From Candidatus Methanophagaceae archaeon (GTDB taxonomy: Archaea > Halobacteriota > Syntropharchaeia > Alkanophagales > Methanospirareceae), in contig PQXB01000001.1 in assembly GCA_003194425.1 (NCBI GenBank), positions 135,265 to 199,264 of the forward strand: DNA of 64,000 bases, in the 5' to 3' direction. Numbering within the stretch: position 1 is the stretch's first letter; each line of letters begins with the position of its first letter. The position numbers were made by a program, and so were the translations under genes. Of this stretch, positions 9,221 to 60,732 are shown piece after piece. A model generated the notes under the pieces. It searched no databases, was not told where the DNA came from, and saw only the letters and a program-made list of their open reading frames with translations.

Positions 9221-9925
9221 CTATTTCCTGTCCTCTTTTCTGCGGTTGTACAGCACGAATCCAGCGAGTGCGAGCAGTCCGGTACCAAACAAGACCACCG
9301 TCGGCAGCTCTGGCGTTGGGTAGGGGTCGCCACAGGTTGGAGAAGACACAGTGGTTGCTGAGGAGCCCTCTGTATTTATGTACGCCTCCGCACCATCCCC
9401 AGCCATCGAGAGCCTAAGAGCGAGATAATCTCCCTGTGGCACTGTAAACAATGGACAACTCACAACAAAATGGCTAGCACCATCACTGCAGACATTTACA
9501 ATTCCTACGATTGATTTTTCGCACTTTTCGTCGAACTCTCCTGTGCTGTGGTCGAGGATTCCAACTTTCGCTGTAACCGTTTCGGTACTATCGAGATAAC
9601 CACTACACTCCGCATCAATAGGCTCATAATCGAGATGTACAACCCAGTTTCCCGCGCAGAAGGAAACCTCGCATTGAGCCGATTCGTTTGCACTCCAGGT
9701 AAATGAGTCGGTCTCATTTAACCAGAAATCATTTGAAGTTCCCGTTCTCGCTCCTCTCGTCATCCAATAATTTGCTCCAGCTGGAACTTCTGTTTCATTT
9801 GTAGTTGGGTACCACGTGATGCTCACCGCGCTCGCCGTTCCGACCACCGAAACCAGCACTACCGCTGCTACCAAAAAACTTACAACCGCTTTTTTCGTTT
9901 CTGTTTTCGTTTCTGTTTTGTTCAT
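9221..9925 (-). CDS. Secreted protein with a PEL-CTERM-like tripartite sorting signal
   Basis: Signal peptide, Cys-rich domain, C-terminus PTPELPTVVLFGTGLLALAGFVLYNRRKEDRK (P-E-L + TM + RRK). Shares GD(Y/W)LA(L/V)RLS with 38791-39513. Confidence 0.65.
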   Translation of the reverse strand: MNKTETKTETKKAVVSFLVAAVVLVSVVGTASAVSITWYPTTNETEVPAGANYWMTRGARTGTSNDFWLNETDSFTWSANESAQCEVSFCAGNWVVHLDYEPIDAECSGYLDSTETVTAKVGILDHSTGEFDEKCEKSIVGIVNVCSDGASHFVVSCPLFTVPQGDYLALRLSMAGDGAEAYINTEGSSATTVSSPTCGDPYPTPELPTVVLFGTGLLALAGFVLYNRRKEDRK

Positions 9926-10065
9926 TTTTTCTTTTTTTCACCTCCTAACTTTTTTTCTTTTTTTCCTTCGCTTCCCTCTTTTTCCTCCTCCTCTTTTTCT
10001 ACTCTCTTTTCTTCCTCTGCCCTCTCCCTTTTTGGCTCGTTCTTACCGAGGGCAATTAGTATATT

Positions 10066-10734
10066 CTATCTCACTCTATAAAAATGTTTTCGATATTTTA
10101 GCGTTATTTTCAAGATTTCAGGGGAATTTAGGTTGCTAAATGTCTCGAGGGCGGGATTTTTTTCCCGCACCCTGCTCACGGGGAGGAGGCAAACGTTCTT
10201 GAGCCGCGGGAGGAGAGAAGAGAGTTTCTTCTCGCCGCACTCCGCCGCTGCCTTCGTCGCTGCCAGCGTCGGCTCTTTTTTGTAAACCGCGTGCAACGGC
10301 TCCAGCAACCCGTTCTCCCAACACGGCACTACCGCGTCGCAGCAGCCTGCCACTGCAGTCTCGAAGAGAAGTTCTACAACAGCCTCGCAGACAAAAGGCA
10401 TGTCGCAGCCAAGAACGAAGCAGTAGGCAGACGAAGCCCGCTCCAAGCCCGACTGAACGCCTGCAAGCGGACCAAAACCCTTCAGCGTGTCAAAGACAAA
10501 GACGATTTTTGTTTTTGTAGCTGTTTTAAGAGCGTTCTTAATTCGTTCGCCCTGCACTTCGTCGCGTGCTGCCACGATTATTTCGTCCGCCACGCCCGAG
10601 ATTCTCTCGATCGCGTGCTGCAGGAGCGGTTTGTTGTTTAAGCAGGCGAGGCATTTCTCGACGTGGGGATCTTGAAATCTTTGGCTCTTCCCGCCCGCGA
10701 GAATGACCGCGGTCTTTTTTCTTTCGCTTTGCAT
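10066..10734 (-). CDS. mobA: Molybdenum cofactor guanylyltransferase MobA-like NTP transferase
   Basis: AVILAGGKSQRF N-terminal NTP-transferase motif; ~200 aa. Confidence 0.6.
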   Translation of the reverse strand: MQSERKKTAVILAGGKSQRFQDPHVEKCLACLNNKPLLQHAIERISGVADEIIVAARDEVQGERIKNALKTATKTKIVFVFDTLKGFGPLAGVQSGLERASSAYCFVLGCDMPFVCEAVVELLFETAVAGCCDAVVPCWENGLLEPLHAVYKKEPTLAATKAAAECGEKKLSSLLPRLKNVCLLPVSRVREKNPALETFSNLNSPEILKITLKYRKHFYRVR

Positions 10735-10810
10735 TGGTTTTTAACTCTAAATTAAACTTAAGAAAGAAGAGGGTTTTTAAGGTGTAACGAAAGAATAAAA
10801 GGGAGGAAAG

Positions 10811-11128
10811 ATGGAAGCGAGGGAAGTAATATCTTCGGTTGTAATGGTTTTTTCTACCTTCGTGCTGGCGTACAAATGGGTGTACAAGTACAAGGCAGGA
10901 GACCCAGTGGTCGTGCTCTCGTCGGTGGTTTTGATGGGGATGTTAGCGGTTCTGTTTCTAAGTACAGCAGAGCGGTTAAAGAGGCTGGAGGAGGAACTAA
11001 ACGAGAAAGAGCGGTCTTTGCGAGTGAGCATGCAGTCAGTCGAGGAGGAGGTGCGGGAGAAGGTGAGTGCTGCGACGAGGCGGTTGGACGAGGTTAGGGA
11101 GGAGATTGTAAGGAGGGGGTACCGGTAA
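10811..11128 (+). CDS. Small membrane protein (2 TM plus coiled coil), hypothetical
   Basis: Hydrophobic N-terminus followed by an EE/RR-rich helix. Confidence 0.35.
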   Translation: MEAREVISSVVMVFSTFVLAYKWVYKYKAGDPVVVLSSVVLMGMLAVLFLSTAERLKRLEEELNEKERSLRVSMQSVEEEVREKVSAATRRLDEVREEIVRRGYR

Positions 11129-19872: not shown

Positions 19873-20625
19873 TTACCTCCTCTTCAAGCCCACACCAGCG
19901 AGCAGCCCGAAGAACAGCCCTGCCAAATGCGCCGTAAACGCAATCGGGTAGGCAGAGCCAATCATTAAGAAATTGAGCACCGCAAAAAGAATAACTACCA
20001 TCCACATCTCCAACGGCACCGGCAACGGAAAAATATACATCCGCATCCTCGGCATCAGCACCGCAAGCGCTCCGAAAACGCCGTACAACGCTCCGCTCGC
20101 TCCAAGCGACGGGTTAATCGCGGTTAGACCGTACACAAGCCCTGCAAAGATTCCCGAGCCGAAGAAGACGAGCAGGAACTTTGAACTGCCGATTTTTCGC
20201 TCCAGCACCGGCCCGAAGAAGACCAAAAAAAACATGTTGAAGAAAAGGTGCCAGAGACCGCCGTGTAGGAAAACGTGCGTTACCAGCGTCCAGGGTCGCT
20301 CTGAAATGTGTGCTGGCATCAAAACCAACTGCCTCTCGTAGCCCGGAACGAGTAGTTGCAGAGCGAAAGAGGCGGAAATGAGGAGCAGGAGCAGGTAAGA
20401 GTAGTTGTGAGAAAAAACGCCAAAATTCGTGCCAAAGTTCTTTCGAATTTCTTTTTTGTTTTCTTTTCTGCGTACCTCATCAAACCCAGACCCGACGCAC
20501 CAGTGCTTCTCGGGTGGCAGGTGCTCCTCGCAGAGGCTGTCGCCGCAGTATTTGCATTTCTGGGTCGCGGGTCTGCCGCAGACCGTGCACCGTGCTCGTG
20601 TTGCTCGTGTCGTCGTGCGTACCAT
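19873..20625 (-). CDS. Rhomboid family intramembrane serine protease with N-terminal zinc ribbon
   Basis: CTVCGRP...CKYCGDSLCEEH zinc ribbon; rhomboid GASGALYGVFG (Ser) and AHLAGLFFG (His). Confidence 0.7.
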   Translation of the reverse strand: MVRTTTRATRARCTVCGRPATQKCKYCGDSLCEEHLPPEKHWCVGSGFDEVRRKENKKEIRKNFGTNFGVFSHNYSYLLLLLISASFALQLLVPGYERQLVLMPAHISERPWTLVTHVFLHGGLWHLFFNMFFLVFFGPVLERKIGSSKFLLVFFGSGIFAGLVYGLTAINPSLGASGALYGVFGALAVLMPRMRMYIFPLPVPLEMWMVVILFAVLNFLMIGSAYPIAFTAHLAGLFFGLLAGVGLKRR

Positions 20626-42089: not shown

Positions 42090-43129
42090 GATCCTATTTT
42101 AAGTTGCCACGTCTTATTTTTCTTCCCATTCTTTTTTATAGCATCTTCCTCTTCCAGACCCTTAAACTCTAACAAGAATTCGCGGATCCGCCTCTCCGCC
42201 AATTTCACATATTCTTCGCCTGTCTCGTAGCCAACATAATGGCGTCGGGTTTTTATCGCCGCTATTCCCGTCTGCCCGCTCCCCGCGAAAGGGTCTAAAA
42301 CAACCTCGCCCTCGAAGGTGTAAAGTTGAATCAGCCTGTAAGGAAGTTCCACAGGGAACGGTGCTGGGTGTCCAACCCTACGAGCAGATTCCGCAGGGAA
42401 CGTCCAAACGCTTTTAGTAAACTCAAGAAACTCCTCCTTTGAGATTGTGCTTTTTCTTCTTCTTTTCTCGTTCTTGCTCTCTCCTCGGCTAAACCCGCTT
42501 TTAGAAAAGACCAAAATATATTCGTGAATGTCCCGCAGCGTGGGATTAGCAGCAGAAAGCCAGCTCCCCCACGCCGTTGAAGGGCTCGCACTCGCGGCTT
42601 TGTTCCAAATGATTTCCCCTCGCATCAAAAACCCTAAACCGAGCAGGTCCTCAAGCACAAAAGCGTGAAGAGGAATGTACGGCTTTCTTTCTAAATTCGC
42701 GATGTTTACGCAGGCTCTACCGCCGGGCACGAGCACCCTGAAGACCTCTTTCCAAACCGTTCTTAAAAAATTTCTGTATTCTTCAAGCGTTAAATTTTCG
42801 TCGTATTCTTTGCCCGCGTTGTAGGGCGGCGAAGTGACCATTAAATGAACGCTGTCATCTGGCAACTCGTCCATCTGTTCGCTCGATTTACAGAAGATTT
42901 TATCCAACAACTGCGGTGGAATGCGATTTTCCAGAAATTGCACTTTCTTTTCTTTTTCCCCTGGCAAACTTTCGTATAATTTGCTGGCATAAAACGCGGT
43001 GGAATTATGATTTATTCGACCGGGCGAGCCAAACGAGCTTGTTTGCGTCCCTCTTTTTCTTTGACTGTTTGTCATTGTATAATAAAGAGGATTTTGAAAA
43101 ACCCCCGAAAACGAGTGAAAATGCCACAA
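42086..43129 (-). CDS. Beta-class DNA methyltransferase (N4-cytosine or N6-adenine), apparently orphan
   Basis: Motif IV SPPY (VTSPPYNAG) precedes motif I DPFAGSGQTG. 4-nt overlap with the downstream DUF357 gene. Confidence 0.8.
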   Translation of the reverse strand: MWHFHSFSGVFQNPLYYTMTNSQRKRGTQTSSFGSPGRINHNSTAFYASKLYESLPGEKEKKVQFLENRIPPQLLDKIFCKSSEQMDELPDDSVHLMVTSPPYNAGKEYDENLTLEEYRNFLRTVWKEVFRVLVPGGRACVNIANLERKPYIPLHAFVLEDLLGLGFLMRGEIIWNKAASASPSTAWGSWLSAANPTLRDIHEYILVFSKSGFSRGESKNEKRRRKSTISKEEFLEFTKSVWTFPAESARRVGHPAPFPVELPYRLIQLYTFEGEVVLDPFAGSGQTGIAAIKTRRHYVGYETGEEYVKLAERRIREFLLEFKGLEEEDAIKKNGKKNKTWQLKIGS

Positions 43130-43276
43130 AAGTATATAAAGAAGAGAGTGTTACGAGGAGTAAATCAAAATCCTCTAAAGTAAAATATTTCGCAGTCTTG
43201 AAATTTCCAAAAGGGGATTTTTGACGAAGCGGTGAAGCGTAGCGAAACCAAATACGCTCTGTTATACGCTGTGTCT

Positions 43277-43465
43277 TTATTGGACTTTCTTAACTTGCTT
43301 CCCCAACAATTTGATATATTCAAGAAAACTTAACCCTTCGAATTCCGCTTCCTTAGCAATAATTTTCCTCGCGATATGAACTTGCTGTAAAGCCGGGTCG
43401 TCTGGGAACTCCGCTTCCACCGCTCTTCTTATTTCCTCAATATCCTTCTCTTTGACCTTGCTCAT
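43277..43465 (-). CDS. Small protein downstream of the PIN gene (possible antitoxin)
   Basis: 62 aa, 15-nt gap to the PIN gene. Confidence 0.3.
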   Translation of the reverse strand: MSKVKEKDIEEIRRAVEAEFPDDPALQQVHIARKIIAKEAEFEGLSFLEYIKLLGKQVKKVQ

Positions 43466-43480
43466 ATTTTCCCCCCCTTC

Positions 43481-43945
43481 CTATAACAATTCCGCAGGTG
43501 TCATAATCTCTATTTGCCTCAGGTTATTTAAAGTATTTACCCTCCTCACTCTGTCTCTCGTTTTTCTCCTTACAATGTGCCTAAAGTTCCAACTCAAAAG
43601 ACAGTCTATCTCGTTTATCGCTGCGATAGCAATATGGTAGGCATCTTCAGGGTAACCCGCGGGAACTGCGTCATAGCGAATATATTCGCTCGCTACCCTT
43701 TCAACGTCGTCAGTTAAAGCGAGGAGTGAAAATTGCGCGACTGCATCCTTCATTTTGCTTCGGAGTTCTATGTCTGGGGTTCGTTCAATCTCGGCAACCG
43801 TAATTTCGGAGATGAAAGTCTCAAAGTTACCTTTTTCCGCGAAAAAAGATTCTGTGAGCGATTTCCTCTCCGGATTCCGCTCATCAAACCGTGCTGAAAT
43901 TACTGAGGTGTCTAAATACACTTTCCCTCTTCTTCTCAGTTTCAC
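43481..43945 (-). CDS. PIN-domain (VapC-like) toxin; GTG start
   Basis: Acidic residues at PIN positions (VYLDTSVI, ...EIE..., ...EDAYHIAIAAINEID...). Confidence 0.55.
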   Translation of the reverse strand: MKLRRRGKVYLDTSVISARFDERNPERKSLTESFFAEKGNFETFISEITVAEIERTPDIELRSKMKDAVAQFSLLALTDDVERVASEYIRYDAVPAGYPEDAYHIAIAAINEIDCLLSWNFRHIVRRKTRDRVRRVNTLNNLRQIEIMTPAELL

Positions 43946-44014
43946 TTTCCTTTACCTCTTAGGCATTGCATAACTTCGGTATCCACTCGAGTTCACACAT
44001 CCTCAAAATAAGTT

Positions 44015-44323
44015 TTATAGTCCCGTTGCATATTTTACACTCCCTAAAAGGTACGGACGAAGTCCGGGTTTCACCGTCCCATAAATTACAAGGTCAACCC
44101 TGCATTTGAATAAATCCTCAAGGAAAAGTTTTAATTCAATGTAATTGTCAAACGTTTTCTTACTCTTCTCAAATTCCACCAGTATGTCTATGTCACTCCC
44201 TCTTCTTTGTTCATTTCTTACATACGAGCCAAATAATCCTATCTCTTTAACACCAAATCTTTTTATTATCGCTTTGCTCTCCTCGATTTTCTTCAATATT
44301 TCGTTTTCGTCCGCTGTTATCAT
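44015..44323 (-). CDS. Minimal nucleotidyltransferase (MNT) antitoxin-type protein
   Basis: LFGSYVRNEQRRGSDIDILVEF NTase motif. Confidence 0.75.
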   Translation of the reverse strand: MITADENEILKKIEESKAIIKRFGVKEIGLFGSYVRNEQRRGSDIDILVEFEKSKKTFDNYIELKLFLEDLFKCRVDLVIYGTVKPGLRPYLLGSVKYATGL

Positions 44324-44452
44324 TTCTTCTTCACCTCTTTGGCAGAGACGGGCATTTTATAGGGCAAAATGTCCAGAAGGACAAGCTACTTAAGTGAGCA
44401 TAGCGTAAACTTGTATTCTTATACTGTGCCACATCTCTTTATTAACCATAAC

Positions 44453-46285
44453 CTATGTGCGATCGATACACGTATATCTAAATTTCTTTTTTACATTCCA
44501 CACTTTCACTACTGCCCATGTTAAGGCAAGGAACCATGCACTTGGTGAGATTATCTTAGCAAGGATAGCTGAGATAATACACACAACAATAAAGAGCCCT
44601 ATTTCGCCACCCATTAAGAATTGTTTTTCTTTTTCGACCTTGGATTTACACATAGCAATTATTTCATTCTCCTTAATTTCATTCTCCTTATCCCTCTCCT
44701 TGTTTTTTACATCTGACTCAACAACACCTAACGCTTTTTTAATTTTGCCAACTTCTGTTAGACATTGATCTTCACGTTTTTTGTCTTCTGCTATATTAAA
44801 CACCTTGCTAAGTGATTCTAAACAATTTACTAATGTAATACTATCGCCGCATTGCTTAGCATAGCCACCAGCTACAAACAATCTTTTCTGAGCTAAATCC
44901 ATTCTACCTTTCCTTAGATAGCATAGCCCCGCAGCGTAGCTGGAAAGTCCAAGACAATAGGGGTCATAGGTTTTTCCAGAAAGCCATGAAGTCCAGAACA
45001 GAGGATCATTCCCCCTCCACTCCCACTCACCCGGAATCTTGGCAACCATCATGCTGAGGCACTCGATTACCTCCCTATGCCGTCCCATATTCATATACCG
45101 ATCTGCGGTTTTTAATAAGGATTCAAGTGCTTTTTCATACTCTTTTAGAACAATCAGCGCAAGCCCATGATTCTTTAGTGCCTTAGTAACAAGCCATGGA
45201 TCATCACTTCCACGGATGATCTTATCTGACTGTGCTGCAATAAAAGTAGCTTCCTCCTTTGATGGGTCAAGAAGAATTATTTCAGAAAAGAAGTTCTTCC
45301 ATGCCATTTCATTGATACCCGAAGCCCACCTGAGTAGGAATTTATTTTGGCGAGTTTTCATTTTATCTTCTTTACCCTGATCATATTTTTCGTCGGCGTC
45401 TTTATCTAAGAGTCTTGCAAAAATACTCTTTTGGTCCGCGCCTACTAATTTACAATTAGGGCATTCGCGACCAAAAGCTTTGATGTTACCTGTTAGGCTG
45501 ACCTCATTATTCCGCAGCACCCAATAAACACCCTTCGCCGTTTTGGCAGTGCTTAGGATTACTGGAAAAATATCATCGTCGTTGCCACTGTATCCTACAA
45601 TTAAAACGGTGTAGGATCTAAAGACGACACGAAGAAGGTCTGAAAGATCTTTTTTTAGATTAAGTCCTGCCAGTCTAAGAGTAAATATTATGCTTGCTTT
45701 TTCGTCTAAAGTGCCATGAAGCTTAACTACGGGCAGGTGTGACTCGTCTGACCCCTTATTATTCAAGGAGTTTAACAAGCCTTGACGCACAGAATTCACA
45801 TAAAGTTTGTATTTATTAAGGCTTACTTTCTCTAATGCTTTCTCTATATATGTATCAAAATTCGTTGTTAGGACAATTGGTATCTTATATTCACGAGCGA
45901 TATATGCGATATTGGAGTGGTTGCAATTGGGTATGCCCATATTCAAAATATCTATAAAACCAAAGAAATTCTCTCGAAGATTACTATGCAAAATTTGACA
46001 GAACAATTCAGGTTTTATTCTTTTTGTACGACAATTAATAAAACTGTGGAAGTCATCAAGTCCGCTGTGTGCACTTTTTGCGGAATCTATTACAAGATCC
46101 ATTAGCTCCTTCGAGAGTGGACAAGAGGAAGGAGGATCCTTAGAAATCCCCGCACCCACAAAGATAACAAGTTCATTCGACTTTGCTTTTTTAAGCTCTT
46201 GAACAGCACTCTCAAGATCAACCAACTCTCTTAATTCATTTTTTACCATATCTTGCCTTTGACAATTATCTTTTTCTTTAATCAT
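44453..46285 (-). CDS. SIR2_2-domain protein with TPR-like helical middle region and 1-2 C-terminal TM helices (candidate NADase effector)
   Basis: SIR2_2 motifs VIFVGAGIS, VLTTNFD, VVKLHGT. C-terminal IGLFIVVCIISAILAKIISPSAWFLALTWAVV. Confidence 0.7.
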   Translation of the reverse strand: MIKEKDNCQRQDMVKNELRELVDLESAVQELKKAKSNELVIFVGAGISKDPPSSCPLSKELMDLVIDSAKSAHSGLDDFHSFINCRTKRIKPELFCQILHSNLRENFFGFIDILNMGIPNCNHSNIAYIAREYKIPIVLTTNFDTYIEKALEKVSLNKYKLYVNSVRQGLLNSLNNKGSDESHLPVVKLHGTLDEKASIIFTLRLAGLNLKKDLSDLLRVVFRSYTVLIVGYSGNDDDIFPVILSTAKTAKGVYWVLRNNEVSLTGNIKAFGRECPNCKLVGADQKSIFARLLDKDADEKYDQGKEDKMKTRQNKFLLRWASGINEMAWKNFFSEIILLDPSKEEATFIAAQSDKIIRGSDDPWLVTKALKNHGLALIVLKEYEKALESLLKTADRYMNMGRHREVIECLSMMVAKIPGEWEWRGNDPLFWTSWLSGKTYDPYCLGLSSYAAGLCYLRKGRMDLAQKRLFVAGGYAKQCGDSITLVNCLESLSKVFNIAEDKKREDQCLTEVGKIKKALGVVESDVKNKERDKENEIKENEIIAMCKSKVEKEKQFLMGGEIGLFIVVCIISAILAKIISPSAWFLALTWAVVKVWNVKKKFRYTCIDRT

Positions 46286-47361
46286 AGATAGCCTCTATCG
46301 AATATAGCAGCAGTAGGAATTCTTTTACGCACTTCGGACAGAAGGATTTTTTCATCACGCTTTGACAGGGTCGAGGTATTGTATGCCCACCTAAGTCCGT
46401 TTTTTGAATATAAAACCAGAAGCCTGTCAGTTCCAGAAATAATGTTATGCCTTTCGCGTAGGGTTGCTTTCTCAATATCTGACCACCGCAAGCCAAATGG
46501 CCTGCCTAAACCGGAAATAAAAATTCCTTCATCAAGTAATGTTATCTTTTGTAAATGTACAATAATTGTTTGAAGAATAAGATAAAGGGAGGATAATCCC
46601 CCTAAAACGCCCAAGAGGATACTAATTAATCCTGTTTTTTCATACCTGAACCTGATATAAATCAGTAATAAGGCTGTTACAGCGGGGGAAATAGTCCAAA
46701 TAAATGACCGAATAAACGAACGCATAGTTGGTTTAAAAGTTTGACCCATAATCTTTGGTAGAGCAGGGGGTTGGTGACCTTTTATGTACTTTACTAATTC
46801 TCCTATGGTTGTGCCGTAAGGGAAACTTAGCATAAACAGAAACAGCGATAATTCGCCCAGTAGCTGACCCTCTAAGTTTACAAGGCTCCAAATAAAGAGA
46901 TAAAAAGATGAAGTGAGTAAGGCAATAATTGGAGCTCTTTTGTAGAGATGAAAGCCCATTAGTTCAAACATCAGGCTCATCTTATCTGTCCAATCTATAT
47001 TTTCAGTAAGAAAGATTCTCTCCATTTCGACACCCTTTTCAAGTTCAATCAATTGTGCTGCCCGAAGATTATATTCCTCATCCCTTAGCTTAATTCTCTG
47101 CGAAAATGTATCGAATGGATTAATAGAAACTCGTGTTGACCGGCCACAAATATAACCTATTGCAAAAGGAATTGCTACTGTTATTATTCCCAATGGATGA
47201 AAAGGTGCCAAAAGAAAAGAGATTATGATGGCTACTAAATGAGGAACTCCAGCACGCCTAATTCTAAATATTTTGAAAATGACCCAGAAGAATACAAAAC
47301 TTACGCACAAAGTGGTGCCTATGACATACAAAAGTGTCATGTTCTCGTTCATGGTAATCAT
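46282..47361 (-). CDS. Polytopic membrane protein with a C-terminal soluble (PH-like) domain, in operon with the SIR2 gene
   Basis: At least 6 predicted TM helices; 4-nt overlap with the SIR2 gene. Confidence 0.5.
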   Translation of the reverse strand: MITMNENMTLLYVIGTTLCVSFVFFWVIFKIFRIRRAGVPHLVAIIISFLLAPFHPLGIITVAIPFAIGYICGRSTRVSINPFDTFSQRIKLRDEEYNLRAAQLIELEKGVEMERIFLTENIDWTDKMSLMFELMGFHLYKRAPIIALLTSSFYLFIWSLVNLEGQLLGELSLFLFMLSFPYGTTIGELVKYIKGHQPPALPKIMGQTFKPTMRSFIRSFIWTISPAVTALLLIYIRFRYEKTGLISILLGVLGGLSSLYLILQTIIVHLQKITLLDEGIFISGLGRPFGLRWSDIEKATLRERHNIISGTDRLLVLYSKNGLRWAYNTSTLSKRDEKILLSEVRKRIPTAAIFDRGYL

Positions 47362-47367
47362 CTCCTT

Positions 47368-47853
47368 CTATTCTCTTTGTGCTTTGATAATACTATCGAG
47401 AATAATAGAGCAAATTATCCCTCCTGTATACCCTATACTTGGCGCAAGGAGAAAAAAGATAGTGTTGAATTTTAAAATGCCAATAGCCTCAAGCCATTCT
47501 TGGCCGATATCTTTGTTAATGAAGAATGATAATGCGGCAGAAAGAATAGCTATGTTAGCCATAACTATACAAAACCACCCAATACCAAAGAATTTTGCAG
47601 GTGTCAAGATATCAGAACCCATTGCTGAATAAGATAATACGGAAATACTTGAAAATCCGATTCCGAAGATAACGGCAATCACAGGATAAATCACCAACAA
47701 CATTTTCATTTTATTTTCGTACTCTCCGAGGATCTCCCATGAGTTGCTGATTGTACCTTGAAATATTTCCATTGCAATCCACAATGTTAAGTAGAAAAAG
47801 AACAAGTAGCCAAATATAAAGCCGAAGGTTGATGCTTTACTTATTTTTTGCAT
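47368..47853 (-). CDS. Four-TM membrane protein, hypothetical
   Basis: Hydrophobic throughout; 6-nt gap downstream and 13-nt overlap upstream within the operon. Confidence 0.45.
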   Translation of the reverse strand: MQKISKASTFGFIFGYLFFFYLTLWIAMEIFQGTISNSWEILGEYENKMKMLLVIYPVIAVIFGIGFSSISVLSYSAMGSDILTPAKFFGIGWFCIVMANIAILSAALSFFINKDIGQEWLEAIGILKFNTIFFLLAPSIGYTGGIICSIILDSIIKAQRE

Positions 47854-48677
47854 TCTGATTCATCTGCCTTTGAGCTTTTAATCTGTTTGATTTCATCCAG
47901 CATACTTTCTGTTAGTTTTATGTCTTCATATTTTCCTATTTCTCTGTCTATATAAAGACTACGTTCATATTTCTCTTTCGCCATCTCATATTTTCCCTGA
48001 ATATGCTCTATTTCGGCGAGCCTAAAGATAGCACCGCTTATGACAGAAAGTATTTCATGGTTGTTTGGTGACTTGCTGTTCAGTGATTCCGCAATCACAA
48101 GTGCCTTTTCTACTGCCCCGGCTGCTTTGTCTAAATACTGCTGCTGACGATACAGAAGCGACAACTGATAATAAACAGCTACAACGTTTAATTCATGGCA
48201 GATAGATTCCGCATCTGTTTCAGACTTACTCGTAAGACGCTTCTGAATTTCGAGAGCTTGGAGATATAAGAACTCCGCCTTTTTCAACCTATTATTATTC
48301 CGAAGCTCTTCAATGAATTTTTTGGATCTTGGATTGTGCCAGTTTCCGGTGTAAGTGGTCTCATGGAGAAACTTGGCACGGTTATAGAGACGCTGAGATT
48401 TCGGAGTAAGAAATCGAGAGATAAAAAAGACAATTAGTCCACACATAGGAAACGAGATGCTTTCCCAAGAATTGAGGGAGAATTCCAATTTACCGATTGA
48501 CTGCCACACCATCATTCCAATAAAGCAAAATAGAGCAAATGTTACTTTTTTGTTTTTCTGACCCTCCAATCCTAACCTTATCCAACCTTTCTTCCCAATT
48601 TCCCAACCAATCAAAGCATTTGCTATTAATCCCACTACAATAAAGCAATACAGATCGAAAATAAATTGTTGTGTCAT
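47841..48677 (-). CDS. Membrane-anchored TPR-repeat protein (3 N-terminal TM plus TPRs)
   Basis: N-terminal TM helices followed by TPR-like AEFLYLQALEIQKRL / AVYYQLSLLYRQQQYLDKA repeats. Confidence 0.5.
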   Translation of the reverse strand: MTQQFIFDLYCFIVVGLIANALIGWEIGKKGWIRLGLEGQKNKKVTFALFCFIGMMVWQSIGKLEFSLNSWESISFPMCGLIVFFISRFLTPKSQRLYNRAKFLHETTYTGNWHNPRSKKFIEELRNNNRLKKAEFLYLQALEIQKRLTSKSETDAESICHELNVVAVYYQLSLLYRQQQYLDKAAGAVEKALVIAESLNSKSPNNHEILSVISGAIFRLAEIEHIQGKYEMAKEKYERSLYIDREIGKYEDIKLTESMLDEIKQIKSSKADESECKK

Positions 48678-48716
48678 TTTTTTATGTTATTTCCAAACTT
48701 GAGCTCGCACACACTT

Positions 48717-50975
48717 TTATTTATCATCAGAACCCTTCTCTGTTACCAACCTCGGCACGAGCGTCGAGTACCGCCCCAACTGAATCCCGTATTTTTTGTT
48801 GTACTCTGCCATTTCCATCAGTTCGCCAGACCTGTGCCTCGCCCGTTTTATCCGCATTCCCTCAATCTCCCACCCGTGCTCCTCCTTCAACTTCCGCAGC
48901 AACTCCGCCCGCCGCATCACATGCAACTCCTGCTCGGACCGCACGAACAAGTGCCAGTCGTCTGAATATTCGCCAAAGAAATTTTTGTAAGCCTCGTTCT
49001 CCGCCTCCAGACTCGCAAGCCTGGGGTCTCGCAAGGCAAGCGGGCGGTGCAGCAGTTTCGCACTCATCGCGATCGCCTCCTCCTTCGTCTCCACCGGCAC
49101 GAGCATGTGCACTGGACACGGTTCGACCTCCTTCTTCTCACCCGTCACACCGTCGTACATCCACCACTTGCTCCTGTCGTTTTTGTCGCCCAGGAAGAAC
49201 CGCTTGAAGTTGCTTGAACACGAAGGTGAACACGAAGGTGAACACGAAGGTGAACACGAAGGACCGACGACGACAGGAATGCCCGACCTGACGAGACCCG
49301 ACGCAACCGCGAACATCGTCTCCGTCCACGCACCCCAAATTATCGCGACCACGGGCAGCCGAGCGTAGAGGTAGTCGGCAATCTGCGTCCAGTTCGCTTT
49401 CGGCACGTAGCCACTCCCAACCAACGCACCGCGGTAGACCGCAGCAGGAACGTGCGAAATCGCAGTGCAGCCCCCGAAATTCACCAACCCCTTCAGCACT
49501 CCAGCCGCGATGTACTGCTCGAACAAGAACTTCCGCCCCCCTTCCTCCTCGTCAAAATACTTCGCAACGTCCGCAGCAACGCAGCCCGAAACCGTGACAA
49601 GAGCGTTCCGCTCCAGAAAATACCTCGCAATTTCCGCTACTTCTTTCCCGTTCCCTGAACCCTCGCAGTCTCCGCGGTCTCCACAGCCCAGAATATTTAT
49701 CATTCCCGGCCCGTTCCCGCCTAAAATAATCCCGAAGGTCAGGTCCCGCCACTCCAACTCCGACATCGGACCCCGCCCAGCCCGCATAAGAAACTTGTCT
49801 TGCTTTATTTTACCTTTTTTCTTTGGTATTTTTTTCACCCCCACCACCAGCCGAACAGCGAGTTCGCCCGCCTTCTCTGGACCAGAAATTCGCACGCCCG
49901 GCAGGTCCTTCTCCAACACCTCGCTGACCAAATCCTGCACCGTCTTCGCTGACCTCTCCTCTAACTCCAAATCCAACCCGCAGGCGACCACCTTCGCACC
50001 CACCCGCTTCGCCTCCTCTAAAACATCAAGCTCAAAGCACAATTCTCCGCTGACCACGACCACATCGGGAATGCCTGCTCTGAAAACCTCCCTCGCCTTC
50101 ACCGCCGACGCGAGAACCTTTCCGCGTTTGTAAAATCTTGGAATGTCGTGCCCCACCGCACCGACGCCGCAAATTTCTACCGCCTCCTCCAATCCCGCTC
50201 CCGACCTTCTCAAATACTCAACCGCGAACCACGCCGGCAAGAAATCGCTGCCAAGAAAGACCACAACCGGCTTGCTCGTGTCAGCCGCACCGAGACCAAC
50301 TTCGGTCTCGACCGGCGGGAAGTCAGTGTACTCGGTCGCAGGACGCGTGCCTGCGTTGTAGAACCCGAAGCAGCACATTTTTAGCGTCTCTGCAATTTCC
50401 ATCGCGAGAAATGTAAGCGAGCCCGCGTGCAACGCCTTCTCTTCAAATTCCTCCGCACTCTCTCCGCCCTGTTCTTGAGCGAGAAGCAATTTTGAGAGCT
50501 GCGATTCCGCGTAGCACAACGCCCTCTCCGCCTCGCCCAAATCTTTCGTGTAAAACCCGGTCAGCAGTGAGGTGTTCATTGAGGGGTAGGTAACTGACTT
50601 CCCAATCTCAAGTTCCTTCTCTCGCCCAAACCGTTCTACCGAAAAATCAAGCAGACGCCTCGCAACCCCCAACTGCCGAGACAGCCCTTTACAAGCCTCC
50701 TGCAAACTCTGCCTCGCTTGCTTCGCCTGCTCTTCCTTTTTCAGCTTTTCTTCCTTTTTCAGATTTAGTTCGGCGTTCGCGTAGACCGCGGGGTACCTGT
50801 TCAGAAGCACGCTGTCCCACTCTTCGATGTCCGCAGCGTCTGCAAAAATGTTCAACCTCGGCTTCCACTGTTCCAGCTGTCCTCGCTCGCCCATTTCCCT
50901 GAGTATTTCGCGGGCGATTCGTTCCTTCTCTTTCTCTTTCTCCTTCTCTTCCCCCTTCCCCTTCTCTTCCTCCAC
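48717..50975 (-). CDS. Large (752 aa) conserved hypothetical protein with KE-rich N-terminus and a (PSCS)4 repeat
   Basis: Long GC-rich ORF with coding-like composition. 12-nt x4 repeat at ~49207-49262. No family confidently recognised. Confidence 0.5.
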   Translation of the reverse strand: MEEEKGKGEEKEKEKEKERIAREILREMGERGQLEQWKPRLNIFADAADIEEWDSVLLNRYPAVYANAELNLKKEEKLKKEEQAKQARQSLQEACKGLSRQLGVARRLLDFSVERFGREKELEIGKSVTYPSMNTSLLTGFYTKDLGEAERALCYAESQLSKLLLAQEQGGESAEEFEEKALHAGSLTFLAMEIAETLKMCCFGFYNAGTRPATEYTDFPPVETEVGLGAADTSKPVVVFLGSDFLPAWFAVEYLRRSGAGLEEAVEICGVGAVGHDIPRFYKRGKVLASAVKAREVFRAGIPDVVVVSGELCFELDVLEEAKRVGAKVVACGLDLELEERSAKTVQDLVSEVLEKDLPGVRISGPEKAGELAVRLVVGVKKIPKKKGKIKQDKFLMRAGRGPMSELEWRDLTFGIILGGNGPGMINILGCGDRGDCEGSGNGKEVAEIARYFLERNALVTVSGCVAADVAKYFDEEEGGRKFLFEQYIAAGVLKGLVNFGGCTAISHVPAAVYRGALVGSGYVPKANWTQIADYLYARLPVVAIIWGAWTETMFAVASGLVRSGIPVVVGPSCSPSCSPSCSPSCSSNFKRFFLGDKNDRSKWWMYDGVTGEKKEVEPCPVHMLVPVETKEEAIAMSAKLLHRPLALRDPRLASLEAENEAYKNFFGEYSDDWHLFVRSEQELHVMRRAELLRKLKEEHGWEIEGMRIKRARHRSGELMEMAEYNKKYGIQLGRYSTLVPRLVTEKGSDDK

Positions 50976-52560: not shown

Positions 52561-53421
52561 ATAAAACAGAAATAGGGTCTGCAACTGCGAAGGGAGGATT
52601 TGTAAATGAAAAGAGTATTTGCAAGAAGTTTAACAGTTGGAAAAAGGATAAAGAGGCTCAAATTTGGCTCAGGATTATGGGATATAAAGTAGAAAAGATT
52701 GATTCTGTAGAAGCAATTCAAATTCCAACCAGAATTAAGAAGAGTGAAATAGAAAAATTTGGGATAAGCGAAGAGGATTTTGAGGGTTAGCGAAGAGGAT
52801 TTTGAGGGTTTGATGCGATTCAAGAAAGCCGACGCTCAGATAAGAATTGTCATTACTATCGGCGAGATTTTGAAGGTAGAGAATTTGTCTTTAAAGAAGG
52901 CTAATTCTGACGCAGATTATAATCAGGTGGATAAGCGGAGGGTTGATTCGTATCAAAAGATGTGGAGTTTTGACGACGAAATAGCCTACTGGTTAAAGCT
53001 TTTCACGGGTGAGAACAATCCTAAATCGTTTGCTAAACTCGTGGGTGAAGTTGAATTGAGAGACAAAAGGAGGTTATTTTTTGATGAAATGCCTGAGGAG
53101 ATTTGGACTAAAATTATAACATTTTTTGAAGAAAATAGGATAATTGTTGTTAGCGATATTTTAAAGGGGCGAGGCGGACTTTCAGCCAACTGGATGCTGG
53201 TCACGAGGTACAACAAAAATGAGGAGACTACTACTTGGACACTCAAAGATATTAACACCGTTATGAATTTCTTTGGTGGGGGGGAGGTAAAAATATCGCC
53301 GAGAGGAAGTTTGTATTTAGGTAAAATCACAATGCAGAGAAAAGGCGGAACTCCAGACCCTACAAAACTACAGTTCAAGATAAAACCCTGTCAGTTGTTT
53401 AGCCTGGGGGAACGACAATGA
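52557..53421 (+). pseudogene. Type II restriction endonuclease-like gene disrupted by a 22-bp tandem duplication (frameshift)
   Basis: ORFs 52557-52790 and 52780-53421 lie in different frames. Exact duplication agcgaagaggattttgagggtt x2 at 52767-52810. Removing one copy restores ...ISEEDFEGLMRFKK... The gene is followed with 4-nt overlap by an MTase. Confidence 0.55.
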
Positions 53422-54224
53422 AAGGAATGAAAATGGAAGTAGACAAAGTGTATTTAGGCGACTGCGTAAAGATTATGAAGACTTTACCAAATAAATCTGT
53501 AGATTTAGTCTTTGCAGACCCGCCGTTCAACATTGGGCTAAAATACGATGTTTATAACGATAACCTTTCGTATGAAAAATATTACAAGTGGTCTGAAGAG
53601 TGGGTAAAAGAGGCTTGCAGGCTACTTAAAAACAGTGGGGCAATTTATGTCGCGATCGGAGACGAATTCGCAGCAGAGCTAAACATAATTCTAAAACGAA
53701 GAGGCTTCTATTTCAGAAACTGGATCGTGTGGCACTACACCTTCGGTCAAAATCAGCGGAAGAAATTTACCCGCGCACACACTCACATTTTATATTTCAC
53801 CAAAGACAAAGCACGATTTACATTTAACGACAAGCACATTCGCGTGCCCTCGGCAAGGCAACTCGTCTACAAAGACAAGCGAGCAAACCCGCTTGGAAAG
53901 ATTCCCGACGATGTCTGGCAGTTTTCGAGAATTTGCGGAACGTTCAAGGAGCGTCTCGGAAGACACCCTTGCCAAATGCCAGAATCCTTACTTGAGCGAA
54001 TAATAAGCGTCAGTTCCAACGAGGGCGACACGGTCTTAGACCCTTTCGGCGGGACAGGGACAACAGCAGCAGTCGCGAAGAAATTGAAGAGACATTTCAT
54101 CACGATGGAAATATCCGAAGAATATTACGACATCATCTTGAGAAGGTTGAATTTAAGAAGAGTGAAGAGTGTGTCAGAGGACGAGGAAGAGGAGCAGAGG
54201 ACTTTATTTGCGGTTTTAAGATAA
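53418..54224 (+). CDS. Beta-class DNA methyltransferase (R-M system partner)
   Basis: Motif IV DPPF near the N-terminus (LVFADPPFNIG), motif I DPFGGTGTT near the C-terminus. Confidence 0.8.
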   Translation: MKGMKMEVDKVYLGDCVKIMKTLPNKSVDLVFADPPFNIGLKYDVYNDNLSYEKYYKWSEEWVKEACRLLKNSGAIYVAIGDEFAAELNIILKRRGFYFRNWIVWHYTFGQNQRKKFTRAHTHILYFTKDKARFTFNDKHIRVPSARQLVYKDKRANPLGKIPDDVWQFSRICGTFKERLGRHPCQMPESLLERIISVSSNEGDTVLDPFGGTGTTAAVAKKLKRHFITMEISEEYYDIILRRLNLRRVKSVSEDEEEEQRTLFAVLR

Positions 54225-56303: not shown

Positions 56304-57230
56304 TCAGCCCCCCCTTTTTCTCGGCTTACCTGTCTTAATAATCGCGTAAACCAACCCCGCAATCACGCTTATCGCTAATATCGGCAGGGGGAAGAAAGCG
56401 AAACCGAAACCTTCCGCTGAGCTGTGAAAGTCAAAAATCGTGAAGAGACTTTTCGCGGGTCCGATTGTAAAAGATTCTACTCCCAAAATATCAAGAGCCA
56501 TTGGCGCTGTTCCCATCAGAAGCCCCAGCGCAAAAAAACAGAGAATAAATACTTTGAAAAATTTGGAGGCAAATCCTGTTGCAGAGATATTCAGGAGCTT
56601 GTCTGTTTCTCTGCCATAAATTATCAGCCCGTTTTTTCGGTCTTCCAGCAATACTTCTTTCGGATATCTCAGCACGTTACGGGTCACCCACAGATCGCCC
56701 ACCGCTCCGGAAGCGTTTACTACAAGCGGTAGCAGGATCCAGTGCGCAACCGAAGGGAAAGCAGCCATTAAACCAATCCCCGCCAGAGAAATCACGACCA
56801 ACGGCGCAATCGCGATCACAATGAACTGGTTGCGTCGAAAAGCAGTTTTTGTTGTGGCGTAGAAATAGGGGAGGATGAAATATGCAATGCCCGCGCCGTA
56901 ACTCGGCTTGCCACCATATTTTGTCATAAATACGCCGTGAATGAGTTCGTGCAGCACCAGTGTGCCAATGAAGAGTGCTGCTGAAATGAGAATTGTGCCG
57001 CCGCTCGTGAAGTCAAAGTTAAAGCCAACTTTCCCTGTAAATTGAGAATAGAGTGCAGTGAAAAAAAATGCAAACGCAAACAGAGCCAATGTCCCCACCC
57101 CAATTAGCGTAACTACAACCTCTTTTGACATCTCCAACCTGCCAAGCTCTTTACGCCCGTCAACGTCAAGGTTGAGTGGTTGTTGTTCTTTCATCTTAAT
57201 CCTCTTGTACAAGCCCCATCCACGCCACAC
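56304..57230 (-). CDS. Polytopic membrane protein with HExxH (putative zincin peptidase, DUF3267-like)
   Basis: HELIHGVFM within a TM region. Start ambiguous (57230, 57194 or 57131). Confidence 0.5.
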   Translation of the reverse strand: MWRGWGLYKRIKMKEQQPLNLDVDGRKELGRLEMSKEVVVTLIGVGTLALFAFAFFFTALYSQFTGKVGFNFDFTSGGTILISAALFIGTLVLHELIHGVFMTKYGGKPSYGAGIAYFILPYFYATTKTAFRRNQFIVIAIAPLVVISLAGIGLMAAFPSVAHWILLPLVVNASGAVGDLWVTRNVLRYPKEVLLEDRKNGLIIYGRETDKLLNISATGFASKFFKVFILCFFALGLLMGTAPMALDILGVESFTIGPAKSLFTIFDFHSSAEGFGFAFFPLPILAISVIAGLVYAIIKTGKPRKRGG

Positions 57231-57299: not shown

Positions 57300-57935
57300 T
57301 TGAGATGCAAATTCATTTTGAAGGTTGCAGGAGGCTTCGTGGGCTTGGTCTTCTTTGCCGGCGTAATTTCGGTGGACGGGAGCGGAGCGGGTGGGGTAGG
57401 CGGTGCGAGCCTGCTGCTGCCGCTGTGCGTTGGCGGCGGGGTCTTCTTGGGTCTCGGTGCGGTCATTTTGTGGGTAGTCTGGACAGCAGAATCGCGTTCC
57501 ACCAACTTCCTCGCCAAGATCCCTTTTGCTTTCGTGCGGCGGTTTGAAGCGGAGTTTCAAAAAATGAAGGAGAAGAGTTTTTCAATACGCGAGACCGTTC
57601 CTCTTATTCTCGTAATTTACTTTGTCTGTTGGGTTCTTCTTGCAGTTCAGTGGCAACTCATCGGTTTGTCGCTTGGCGTGACGGCGGCGGAGTTGGGGTT
57701 TTTAGCCTACTTCCTTCTGCACCCGTTGATCACGATTCTGCGGTTCGTTCCTGTAACCGTCTCGGGGTTGGGGCTGATGGAAGGTGCGACCGCGGTAGTG
57801 TTTGAGTTGCTCGGCGTAGGACCTGCAGTAGGTCTCTCTTTTGCTTTGTTAGTGCGGTTGAATATGATTTTGGTGGACTGCGTGGGGCTGAAAGGAGTTT
57901 TTTCGTCAGAGTTCAGACTCAAAAATAACGCTTAA
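57300..57935 (+). CDS. Membrane protein, flippase-like / LPG-synthase-TM (UPF0104) family-like
   Basis: Multiple TM helices; GLMEGATAVVFELLG motif. Confidence 0.35.
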   Translation: MRCKFILKVAGGFVGLVFFAGVISVDGSGAGGVGGASLLLPLCVGGGVFLGLGAVILWVVWTAESRSTNFLAKIPFAFVRRFEAEFQKMKEKSFSIRETVPLILVIYFVCWVLLAVQWQLIGLSLGVTAAELGFLAYFLLHPLITILRFVPVTVSGLGLMEGATAVVFELLGVGPAVGLSFALLVRLNMILVDCVGLKGVFSSEFRLKNNA

Positions 57936-58839: not shown

Positions 58840-59075
58840 CTTCCACCCTCACCTCACCTAGGAATTCGATTAAAAGATTTGGTGACTTTACTGCTCCTAC
58901 TGCTCTTCATCGTAAATGTAGCAGTCGTGCTCCCTCCCGCTGACACCTTCTCTCTCGACAAATCCAACGCATTTTCACAAGGGCGAACCAAAAGTGAAGA
59001 CCTTTCTCCTCGCCTTTCCGAGACCAGACAGTGCATTTTACTAACCTTTTTTCACCTTAAAATATTTCCTCTTCA

Positions 59076-59110
59076 AAAAATAAAAACAGGGGGTGGAACG
59101 CCCCCCTTTT
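59076..59110 (-). terminator. Hairpin plus oligo-T terminator downstream of the beta-helix gene
   Basis: Minus-strand transcript ggggggcguuccaccccc followed by uguuuuuauuuuuu, 30 nt after the stop. Confidence 0.45.
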
Positions 59111-59139
59111 CTTCTCTCTCCTTCTCTGCCTTTCCTTTT

Positions 59140-60732
59140 CTACTTCTTCTCCCTTCTCCGCTGTCCGAGCAAGAAGTAGCCCACGACCCCGAGCAGCCCC
59201 GCCGAGAACAGCACCACCGTCGGCAACTCCGGAACCGGCGCACACGGCACTGGACCAGACTTGTAGCCACTGAAGTCCACTTCCCCTTTTCCCGCATTCT
59301 CGTCGTTGTCGTAAATGCTTGCATCTATTTTCGCCGCGTTTGTCGTGCCCCAGTAGTTGTTCTTCGCCGTTACTGCGTCTGACTGGTCGTTGTAGAAGTT
59401 CCACTCGTACCCCTCGCTCGTTCCGTTGTAGTTCCCGTTCACTAAAATGTTGTTCTGCGCGATTGTGTTCCCTGTGCTTCCGCCTGATAAGTGGAACCCT
59501 GCCTGCTTGTTGGCTTGCACCCTGTTGCACGAAATGTTGTTGCCGTCCGTGTTCCAGAGCCGGATGCCTTGCTTGTTGTTCTCGTTCGCGGTGTTGCCGG
59601 TCAGAGTGTTGTAGTTCGAATAATCCAGAAAGATGCCGTCCCAGTTGTTGTAGTTAGCGGTGTTGCTGGTAAGGGTGTTGTTGCTCGAAGAATCCAGCTC
59701 GATGCCGTCGTCGTTGTTGTAGTTAGCGGTGTTGCTGGTAAGGGTGTTGTTGCTCGAAGAATTCAGCCAGATGCCGTCGTCGTTGTTGTAGTTAGCGGTG
59801 TTGCCGGTCAGAGTGTTGTAGTTCGAATAATCCAGCAGGATGCCGTCCCAGTTGTTCTCGTTCGCGGTGTTGCTGGTAAGGGTGTTGTAGTTCGAATAAT
59901 CCAGCAGGATGCCGTCGTCGTTGTTGTAGTTAGCGGAGTTGCTGGTAAGGGTGTTGTAGTTCGAATAATCCAGCCAGATGCCGTCCCAGTCGTTCTGGTT
60001 AGCAGTGTTGCTGGTAAGAGTGTTGTTGCTCGAATAATCCAGCCAGATGCCGACCCAGTTGTTGTAGTTAGCGGTGTTGCTGGTAAGGGTGTTGTTGCTC
60101 GAAGAATCCAGCAGGATGCCGTCGTCGTTGTTGTAGTTAGCGGTGTTGCTGGTAAGGGTGTTGTTGCTCGAATAATCCAGCTCGATGCCCCAGTCGTTCT
60201 GGTTAGCAGTGTTGTTCGTTAGCTCGTTGTTGCTTGAATCCTGCAGGTAGATGCCGAACCAGCTGTTTTTCGAGCAGTTGTTCTCAGAGATCTTGCAGTG
60301 CTGCACGCCGTTGAGGGTAATCCCTGCTATCCAGCCACCACTTGTCGCTCCGGTCGCCGTGAACCCTGAGATGTTCACCCAGTCCGCGGTCACTTCAAAG
60401 ACGTCGTCGCTTGAACTTGCCGCGGTCACTGTCACCTTGTCCTTGCCTTCGCCCTCTAGCGTGAGGTGTGCTGTCCCCACGTTCACGTTCTCGTTGTAAC
60501 TCCCGTTGTAAACAAAGACGGTGTCGCCGCTGGTTGCTGCGTTCACTGCGTTCTGAATTGTTGCGTAGTCGCACCCTATTGCGCAGACGGTGTAAGTCGC
60601 TGCGTTCGCTGTTCCCACAACTACCGCGGCGACTGCGCAAAGGGCAAGCGTAAAGGCAAAAAAGAAACCCATTGCAGACGCTGCCACCGCGGTATTTTCC
60701 TTCTTTCCTAATCCGTTTTTTCCTTTTCGCAT
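59140..60732 (-). CDS. Secreted right-handed beta-helix (NosD/PbH1-like) repeat protein with PEL-CTERM-like sorting signal
   Basis: Signal peptide; about twelve 22-aa repeats (LTSNTANYNNDDGILLDYSNYNT); C-terminus PVPELPTVVLFSAGLLGVVGYFLLGQRRREKK. Confidence 0.7.
   Translation of the reverse strand: MRKGKNGLGKKENTAVAASAMGFFFAFTLALCAVAAVVVGTANAATYTVCAIGCDYATIQNAVNAATSGDTVFVYNGSYNENVNVGTAHLTLEGEGKDKVTVTAASSSDDVFEVTADWVNISGFTATGATSGGWIAGITLNGVQHCKISENNCSKNSWFGIYLQDSSNNELTNNTANQNDWGIELDYSSNNTLTSNTANYNNDDGILLDSSSNNTLTSNTANYNNWVGIWLDYSSNNTLTSNTANQNDWDGIWLDYSNYNTLTSNSANYNNDDGILLDYSNYNTLTSNTANENNWDGILLDYSNYNTLTGNTANYNNDDGIWLNSSSNNTLTSNTANYNNDDGIELDSSSNNTLTSNTANYNNWDGIFLDYSNYNTLTGNTANENNKQGIRLWNTDGNNISCNRVQANKQAGFHLSGGSTGNTIAQNNILVNGNYNGTSEGYEWNFYNDQSDAVTAKNNYWGTTNAAKIDASIYDNDENAGKGEVDFSGYKSGPVPCAPVPELPTVVLFSAGLLGVVGYFLLGQRRREKK
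59560..60240. repeat. About 10 copies of a 66-bp tandem repeat (coding, in frame) in the beta-helix gene
   Basis: Repeated gttgttgtagttagcggtgttgctggtaagggtgttgttgctcgaagaatccag... units with point variants. Confidence 0.8.

Follow-up and report, generated by a model that had tools for sequence, protein, structure and literature searches.

The 64,000-nucleotide stretch of the 1.19-Mb contig PQXB01000001.1 analysed here (positions 135,265 to 199,264, assembly GCA_003194425.1, Candidatus Methanophagaceae archaeon), hereafter the window, encodes three proteins, M1, M2 and M3, that end in a common C-terminal tail built on the motif P-E-L. The explanation favoured here, with a probability of roughly three in four, is that they are Sec-exported surface proteins with tails of the PEP-CTERM kind, and that their cognate enzyme is an EpsH-type exosortase with EpsI and, usually, a CPBP protease. 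The window contains the three substrates, two satellite EpsI genes, each located behind a substrate gene, and a CPBP gene of the type present in the exosortase cassettes of related genomes. The two EpsI (DUF3485) genes, overlooked in a preliminary description of this DNA made from its sequence alone, provide the strongest clue to the sorting system inside the window.

The three proteins and their tails

The proteins and their tails are listed below; bit scores are those of an independent tail hidden Markov model (HMM).

9221-9925, minus strand: M1, 234 amino acids (C4B55_00740, PXF50987.1; hypothetical in the NCBI annotation)
9224-9319, minus strand: sorting tail of M1, PTPEL / PTVVLFGTGLLALAGFVLY / NRRKEDRK; 55.4 bits
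38791-39513, plus strand: M2, 240 amino acids; signal peptide, jelly-roll beta-sandwich and PEL tail, M1/M2 family
39424-39510, plus strand: sorting tail of M2, PAPEL / HSLVLFSTGLLALAGYSLL / TKRRG; 55.0 bits
59140-60732, minus strand: M3, 530 amino acids; signal peptide, NosD-like parallel beta-helix and PEL tail
59143-59238, minus strand: sorting tail of M3, PVPEL / PTVVLFSAGLLGVVGYFLL / GQRRREKK; 61.3 bits

The preliminary description had proposed three proteins with a common tail at these positions, and all three open reading frames (ORFs) are present with exactly the C-terminal pattern it gave. The final 29-32 residues of M1, M2 and M3 are PTPELPTVVLFGTGLLALAGFVLYNRRKEDRK, PAPELHSLVLFSTGLLALAGYSLLTKRRG and PVPELPTVVLFSAGLLGVVGYFLLGQRRREKK, respectively. 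In each case the motif, a transmembrane (TM) helix and a basic cluster follow one another at the extreme C-terminus, and sequence and hydropathy place no spacer between motif and helix. The N-termini carry signal-peptide-like segments: a K/R-rich start, a hydrophobic segment and an A-x-A-type site (ASA/V, VAA/E and ANA/A, the slash marking cleavage sites assigned by eye). In M1 this signal peptide precedes a jelly-roll-type domain of the M1/M2 family, and the PEL tail closes the protein. The further claim that two of the mature domains are related and the third is a beta-helix also holds, M1 and M2 having a domain in common (29% identity, E 6e-19) and M3 being of the NosD type, with very regular repeats of ~22 residues (NNTLTSNTANYNNDDGI.LD.SS). 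The predicted model of M2 shows a helix at the N-terminus and a jelly-roll sandwich; its structural matches are TNF/C1q-like (E about 1e-5, TM-score 0.3-0.5) and are taken as a fold class and not as a function.

The tail HMM was trained on 40 tails, none of them from the window or its sisters, which avoids circularity. The runner-up among 882 window ORF ends reaches 6.6 bits and the top shuffled tail among 17,640 reaches 8.9 bits. A six-frame regular-expression scan together with the HMM scan reveals no fourth tail in the 64-kb window.

Related loci were compared as a set of 54, with one genome per species and with ANME-1 (anaerobic methanotrophic archaea), GoM-Arc1 and Dehalococcoidia among the hosts. 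Their tail consensus is [VI]-P-E-L-[PS]-T, followed by a helix of ~18 residues (LILFSTGLLALAGY..) and an R/K cluster. P and E occur in at least 90% of 57 related tails and one Pro is invariant, with variable helix residues; the core P-E-L is present in all window tails and in the consensus, the rare variants being PEA, PEP, PEM, PEF and PD[VAP]. Beyond the window, the tail is borne by subtilases, papain-like peptidases, NosD beta-helices and proteins with immunoglobulin-like (Ig-like), Big_1, lamin-tail, DUF2341 and BNR domains, by sequence a typical surface or extracellular repertoire. The beta-helix cargos (M3 and those of L016, L021, L023, L026, L029, L033, L034 and L042) have a Cys five residues ahead of the motif, PCAP[VI]PEL. 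It is not general, no Cys lying near PEL in the tail of M2 or in the M2 family.

The exosortase cassette and the class of the signal

The other components of the putative sorting system in the window are as follows.

8098-9045, minus strand: EpsI paralog 1 (DUF3485), starting 175 bp downstream of M1 without an intervening exosortase; PF11984 32.1 bits
57919-58839, minus strand: EpsI paralog 2, 300 bp downstream of M3 (C4B55_01020, PXF51040.1; annotated hypothetical); PF11984 44.1 bits
40075-40866, minus strand: CPBP (Rce1-like) intramembrane protease (C4B55_00915; annotated hypothetical); PF02517 61.9 bits

Both EpsI copies pass the PF11984 gathering score of 26.1 bits, and both are matched by the NCBIfam EpsI models and by the C-terminal EpsI-like domain of exosortase XrtD. 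The two paralogs are 58% identical, and each has N-terminal and C-terminal TM helices around a domain of ~220 residues, a topology consistent with a predicted extracytoplasmic domain. The predicted model of paralog 1 has a predicted local distance difference test (pLDDT) score of 79, and for EpsI neither a solved structure nor a protein of similar structure turned up. In the motif SFHPPIVCYPALGY (residues 144-157 of paralog 1), His146 and Cys151 are invariant across a 30-sequence alignment (A1), the remaining positions being partly variable. By prediction this His-x-x-x-x-Cys motif lies on the outside of the cell, where the two residues might act as a functional dyad. Of the 331 homologs of the EpsI-like protein, some are named 'exosortase-associated EpsI family protein' by NCBI, and these come from Methanophagales (ANME-1), Syntropharchaeia, Argoarchaeum and Methanosarcinales metagenome-assembled genomes (MAGs).

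In related genomes the usual order is one or more tail-bearing substrates, an EpsH-type exosortase of ~275 residues, EpsI and a CPBP protease. On longer contigs the EpsI homolog lies directly behind a PF09721 exosortase of ~275 residues. An exosortase is directly upstream of 34/45 evaluable EpsI genes; a tail-bearing ORF takes this place in 4/45 and neither is found in 7/45. A same-strand tail-bearing ORF lies within 6 kb upstream of 22/33 EpsI genes, and CPBP follows within 1.5 kb downstream of 24/44, in 17 cases on the opposite strand. The locus L001 illustrates the arrangement: an M2-like protein ending VPELSTLILFSTGLLALAGY.., a papain-like (C1) peptidase ending VPELPTFILFSTGLIALAGYVLLTKKR.., exosortase, EpsI, a small ORF and a convergent CPBP gene. 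That the tails are tripartite signals of the exosortase type, as the preliminary description proposed, is supported by their location, 36/40 tail-bearing ORFs in related loci preceding an exosortase/EpsI pair in the same orientation, and by the presence of the tail in 68/71 M2 homologs.

These results bear on the simplest alternative, that the tails are plain, unprocessed membrane anchors whose likeness reflects common descent or recombination of an anchor module. The tail does have a competent TM helix and a positive-inside cluster, no sortase is encoded in the window, and tail processing is something we infer. A passive anchor would, however, not be expected to keep P and E near-invariant while its helix varies, nor to show tight and directional linkage to exosortase and EpsI genes, and P-x-P-E-L is conserved over unrelated cargo (jelly-roll, beta-helix, C1 and S8 peptidases, Ig-like). 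This alternative is considered quite improbable.

The cassette enzyme appears, from its profile scores, to represent an unclassified subfamily of EpsH-type exosortases. Cassette exosortases pass TIGR02602 (8TM_EpsH) with 125.8 and 139.3 bits against 105.55, and PF09721 is passed with 186.7 bits against 25.7. C182-S-G, R227 and H248 are invariant in 39/39 cassette exosortases; Cys, Arg and His correspond to the catalytic triad that has been proposed for the superfamily (PMC1569441; 10.1101/2023.06.07.544157). No cutoff of a named subclass (XrtA..Z, CrtA-C, ArtC/E) is reached, the best subclass scores being 146-155 against 425 for XrtW and 144-146 against 208 for XrtA, with XrtD and XrtV also near.

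The preliminary description leaned towards PEF-CTERM and an artC-like archaeosortase, and the second alternative reads the tails as a variant of PEF-CTERM that archaeosortase C, or some other archaeosortase, handles. The host is archaeal, P-E-L resembles P-E-F, and the tripartite layout is the same as in that system (Haft 2012, as cited in PMC5244752 and PMC9723798), namely a P-E-hydrophobic motif, a TM helix and a basic cluster. The M2-type cargo domain even occurs with either tail: the M2 homologs P0164 and P0185 carry a true PEF-CTERM (IPEFTTIA..RRK) in the position of the PEL tail, a natural tag swap on one cargo domain. These two proteins serve as natural controls for the PEF-CTERM model TIGR03024 (cutoff 23 bits), which scores full-length P0185 at 26.8 bits and the isolated tails of P0164 and P0185 at 24.6 and 31.8 (full-length P0164, 19.4), yet does not match any window protein, window tail or one of the 57 related PEL tails. 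The sequence after the motif differs as well (PEF-TTIAIP.. vs PEL-PTIILFSTGLL...), and so does the helix. The linked enzyme is not ArtC, scoring 45.1 and 47.8 bits on that model (TIGR03762, cutoff 100) and 28.7 bits on ArtE (cutoff 95). In addition, archaeosortases A and C, PEF-CTERM and S-layer domains are reported to be missing from ANME-1 genomes (PMC5244752). Membership in PEF-CTERM/ArtC was rejected on HMM scores with positive controls, the earlier leaning does not survive, and handling by any archaeosortase is held to be highly improbable.

Among curated classes, PEP-CTERM is nearest. In TIGR02595, 11/57 related tails are matched at E <= 0.02, estimated to be near the 16-bit cutoff, and the window tails have P-E-L where PEP-CTERM has its Pro-Glu-Pro core. 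Since the PEF-CTERM model is silent and PEP-CTERM is nearest, the most fitting description of the signal is a variant of PEP-CTERM in which Leu stands for the second Pro. With the PEP-CTERM/exosortase (EpsH, XrtA)/EpsI system known from Gram-negative bacteria (Haft 2006, PMC1569441), the system seen in related genomes has these features in common: a tripartite tag with P-E-x abutting a TM helix and followed by a basic cluster, an eight-TM EpsH-family exosortase with Cys-x-Gly, Arg and His, EpsI directly downstream, a link to a CAAX/CPBP protease and many unrelated secreted cargos per genome. The differences are that the hosts here are archaea without an outer membrane and Dehalococcoidia, that the motif is PEL and most PEL tails score under the TIGR02595 cutoff, that the exosortase reaches the cutoff of no named Xrt subclass, that EpsI carries an additional TM helix at its C-terminus, occurs in several copies and often stands behind a substrate gene instead of the exosortase, and that no linkage to an exopolysaccharide (EPS) biosynthesis locus is seen in the window.

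The third alternative is that in this genome CPBP, and not an exosortase, processes the tails, assisted by EpsI and in the manner in which the myxosortases MrtX and MrtC act on MYXO-CTERM. The preliminary description had drawn attention to a CPBP gene two genes from one member and to the MYXO-CTERM system. The first part stands: the CPBP gene is the second one beyond M2 and runs on the opposite strand, no exosortase is present in the window, and CPBP is a conserved neighbour in the cassette, within 1.5 kb of EpsI in the 24/44 loci counted above. The window copy is 62% identical to the cassette CPBP of L001, 57% to that of L021 and 49% to the Dehalococcoidia copy of L052. Fusions of EpsH with a CAAX protease also exist in bacteria (PMC1569441), and MYXO-CTERM resembles the present system in its tripartite tail and in a CPBP protease encoded near or with the substrates (PMC11980579). 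The second part does not stand. The matches to the Mrt models are weak, every score lying far under its cutoff (MrtS 37.5 vs 130, MrtJ 34.4 vs 75, Mrt_core 23.6 vs 100, MrtX 20.8 vs 180 bits). The myxosortase-type motif has an invariant Cys (10.1101/2023.06.07.544157), which the PEL tails lack, and the myxosortase acts without an exosortase, whereas CPBP here stands alongside one. The exosortase linkage is moreover the tighter of the two, with the catalytic residues kept throughout, and 20/44 loci have no CPBP nearby. Processing by CPBP is therefore regarded as unlikely.

In the window, the region at 38.8-40.9 kb contains M2, SNase, CPBP on the minus strand and then a presenilin homolog. Compared with L001, it looks like a canonical cassette minus the peptidase, exosortase and EpsI. 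The same order of M2, SNase and CPBP, with nothing between, is found in a sister lineage at 90% identity (L065), so the arrangement around M2 is stable. The presenilin homolog is the divergent neighbour of CPBP and is also present in L065:

40905-41831, plus strand: presenilin/SPP-type intramembrane aspartyl protease PSH; NF041679 285.8 bits

As a candidate member of the sorting system it was rejected; it is adjacent in the window lineage only, occurs within 10 kb in 1/54 other loci and is probably unrelated.

Proposed processing and the missing enzyme

In the proposed mechanism, the proteins would be exported through Sec and lose their signal peptide, while the tail helix would hold them in the membrane with the basic cluster inside. 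The PEL motif would be recognised at the outer face of the membrane by the exosortase together with EpsI, a location proposed because motif and helix adjoin, as they do in other signals processed within the membrane (10.1101/2023.06.07.544157). The exosortase would then cleave at PEL via an acyl-enzyme on its Cys, and the mature protein would be passed to an acceptor; candidates are water, a glycan or, following the precedent of ArtA, a lipid. The helix left behind may be processed or cleared by CPBP. The PGF-CTERM/ArtA system of Haloferax volcanii, the sole experimentally studied archaeal member of the superfamily, in which the helix is removed and the protein becomes lipid-anchored (PMC7157517; 10.1101/2023.06.07.544157), is a plausible guide to what may happen to proteins with PEL tails. 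It differs in its motif, PGF, in an enzyme that is distant from the EpsH-type exosortases, and in having no EpsI or CPBP partner.

The number and placement of EpsI genes hint at the role of this protein. The pairing of M1 with EpsI is retained in sister strains, and pairs of substrate and EpsI without an exosortase occur in three other genomes, each of which has an exosortase at another locus: Zod_Metabat.342 (L025 and L042 besides L032), CSMAG_2436 (L034 besides L010 and L033) and CSMAG_2415 (L043 besides L022). In a neighbour-joining (NJ) tree without bootstrap, which is weak evidence, satellite EpsIs cluster with the EpsI of their own lineage. The window copies are sisters, and in Zod_Metabat.342 the two satellite EpsIs fall beside the copy linked to its exosortase. 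On this grouping, ancient cargo-specific clades of satellite EpsIs were rejected; because the satellites group by lineage, EpsI behind a cargo gene would have arisen repeatedly by local duplication. In the fetched loci, the EpsI genes of each genome at least equal its exosortases in number. One cluster, at 1653-4280 of L068 (JGI 3300005099), contains EpsI, exosortase and EpsI and may be an intermediate toward a satellite EpsI. The copy pattern suggests a partner that is required in proportion to cargo or is fitted to particular cargo.

Several observations weigh against the exosortase explanation. The most direct is that no exosortase was found for this genome. The preliminary description had stated that the cognate sortase is not identifiable in the window, and indeed no catalytic subunit emerges: family scans covered ten further window proteins that are secreted or membrane-bound and give no exosortase or archaeosortase match, and the L001 exosortase has no phmmer match among window ORFs of at least 60 residues. 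None lies in the few kb reached past the window edges, on short contigs only, or at the site expected from synteny, the sister lineage having nothing between M2, SNase and CPBP. It is also not among the members of the 20 exosortase clusters sampled out of 368, a sample that is silent on absence. The in-window signals are themselves modest, as both EpsI copies score under the TIGR02914 cutoff (20.7 and 27.4 vs 42.8 bits), their PF11984 match spans only about 80 residues, and all window tails fall under the TIGR02595 cutoff, M1 with 14.1 vs 16 bits and M2 and M3 with no match. The function of EpsI is not known (PMC1569441). Cleavage and transfer would follow by homology to XrtA and ArtA, and whether exosortases act as one-step transpeptidases is unsettled (bioRxiv 10.1101/2023.06.07.544157).

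Other routes to the enzyme were equally unproductive. A heuristic based on E/K-rich N-termini and shortlists of the nearest clusters (L010, L011 and L053) did not find this genome's exosortase. The contig of P0083, the closest non-orthologous EpsI match, was rejected as a source, belonging to another lineage with a GC content of 44%. A rhomboid protease at 19873-20625 (minus strand), considered as a rhombosortase, scores 45.3 bits against a cutoff of 84 and is treated as generic; it has a zinc-ribbon-like Cys cluster at its N-terminus. The exosortase that is not located is the main gap of the favoured explanation. It presumably lies elsewhere in the genome, because the three other genomes with exosortase-less pairs have one at another locus.

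Distribution and significance

The hosts of the 54 loci are mostly ANME-1/Methanophagales, Ca. Methanospirareceae and GoM-Arc1 (Argoarchaeum, Ethanoperedens), with a few Thermoplasmata and three Dehalococcoidia MAGs. In the Dehalococcoidia MAG E44_bin29, L052 contains CPBP, exosortase, an M1-like protein with a PEL-type tail and EpsI at 7460-10828. Its flanks are bacterial (DegV, PepA, GcvT) and its TatC passes the bacterial and not the archaeal model, so that the contig is genuinely bacterial. The system is thus common to archaea and Chloroflexota. Elsewhere, EpsH-type exosortases are bacterial, which makes a transfer into archaea the simpler reading of direction. Dehalococcoidia are a class not known to have an outer membrane.

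The PEL tail is captured by no NCBIfam or Pfam model, and the literature search found nothing on 'PEL-CTERM' or on PEP-CTERM together with ANME-1. The only mention found for these taxa is a table of exosortase-domain counts in a 2017 ANME review (PMC5244752), and Haft 2006 reported no PEP-CTERM in Archaea (PMC1569441). The combination of the PEL tail with a bacterial-type exosortase system in these archaea is accordingly undescribed in the curated models or the literature found.

A broader hypothesis, tentative and on balance doubtful, is that a bacterial-type exosortase acquired across domains provides a main route of surface attachment in ANME-1 and related alkane oxidisers, with EpsI no mere appendage of the enzyme but a stoichiometric partner dedicated to cargo, either an adaptor or, going further, the acceptor or docking site itself. 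Such a role would explain why EpsI outnumbers exosortases and has been duplicated repeatedly behind cargo genes. The invariant His-x-x-x-x-Cys of SFHPPIVCYPALGY, on the outer face, could join the chemistry. If true, this would be a first entry point into the function of EpsI, which has had none assigned since 2006.

The remaining features of the window are given below. A low-GC island covers 42000-48700 and 52780-54224, with a GC content of 0.37-0.45 vs 0.47-0.57 in the remaining window, and looks like acquired restriction-modification or defence DNA.

42086-43129: N6/N4 DNA methyltransferase, in the low-GC island
43481-43945: PIN-like ORF, in the low-GC island
44453-46285: 610-residue ORF, in the low-GC island
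46282-48677: three membrane ORFs with no family match, in the low-GC island
52780-54224: second methyltransferase pair, low GC
56304-57230, minus strand: DUF3267 zincin-like membrane peptidase, 95.2 bits, beyond EpsI paralog 2
57300-57935, plus strand: short LPG_synthase_TM/flippase-like ORF, directly beyond EpsI paralog 2
1432-2637, 2697-4034, 4102-4674, 8098-9045, 48717-50975 and 62160-62969: proteins with low-complexity inserts

The inserts comprise PSASTPSS (three copies), runs of GTGG and AEAG, GGEA (about seven copies) and E/K-rich N-termini. They are a habit of the lineage, the proteins being longer than their homologs.

A large part of the methane in the seafloor is consumed by ANME-1 archaea, and their envelope and surface display, including proteases, adhesins and possibly electron-transfer components, are poorly understood. 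A recognisable tag together with its machinery would allow the surface proteome of uncultured ANME-1 to be predicted from sequence; the tail HMM already picks up subtilases, papain-like peptidases, beta-helix proteins and a dedicated jelly-roll family. The compact cassette of exosortase, EpsI and CPBP, in which the number and placement of EpsI vary, could help to assign functions to EpsI and CPBP. In conclusion, the favoured explanation would extend PEP-CTERM/exosortase biology to organisms without an outer membrane, both archaea and Dehalococcoidia.

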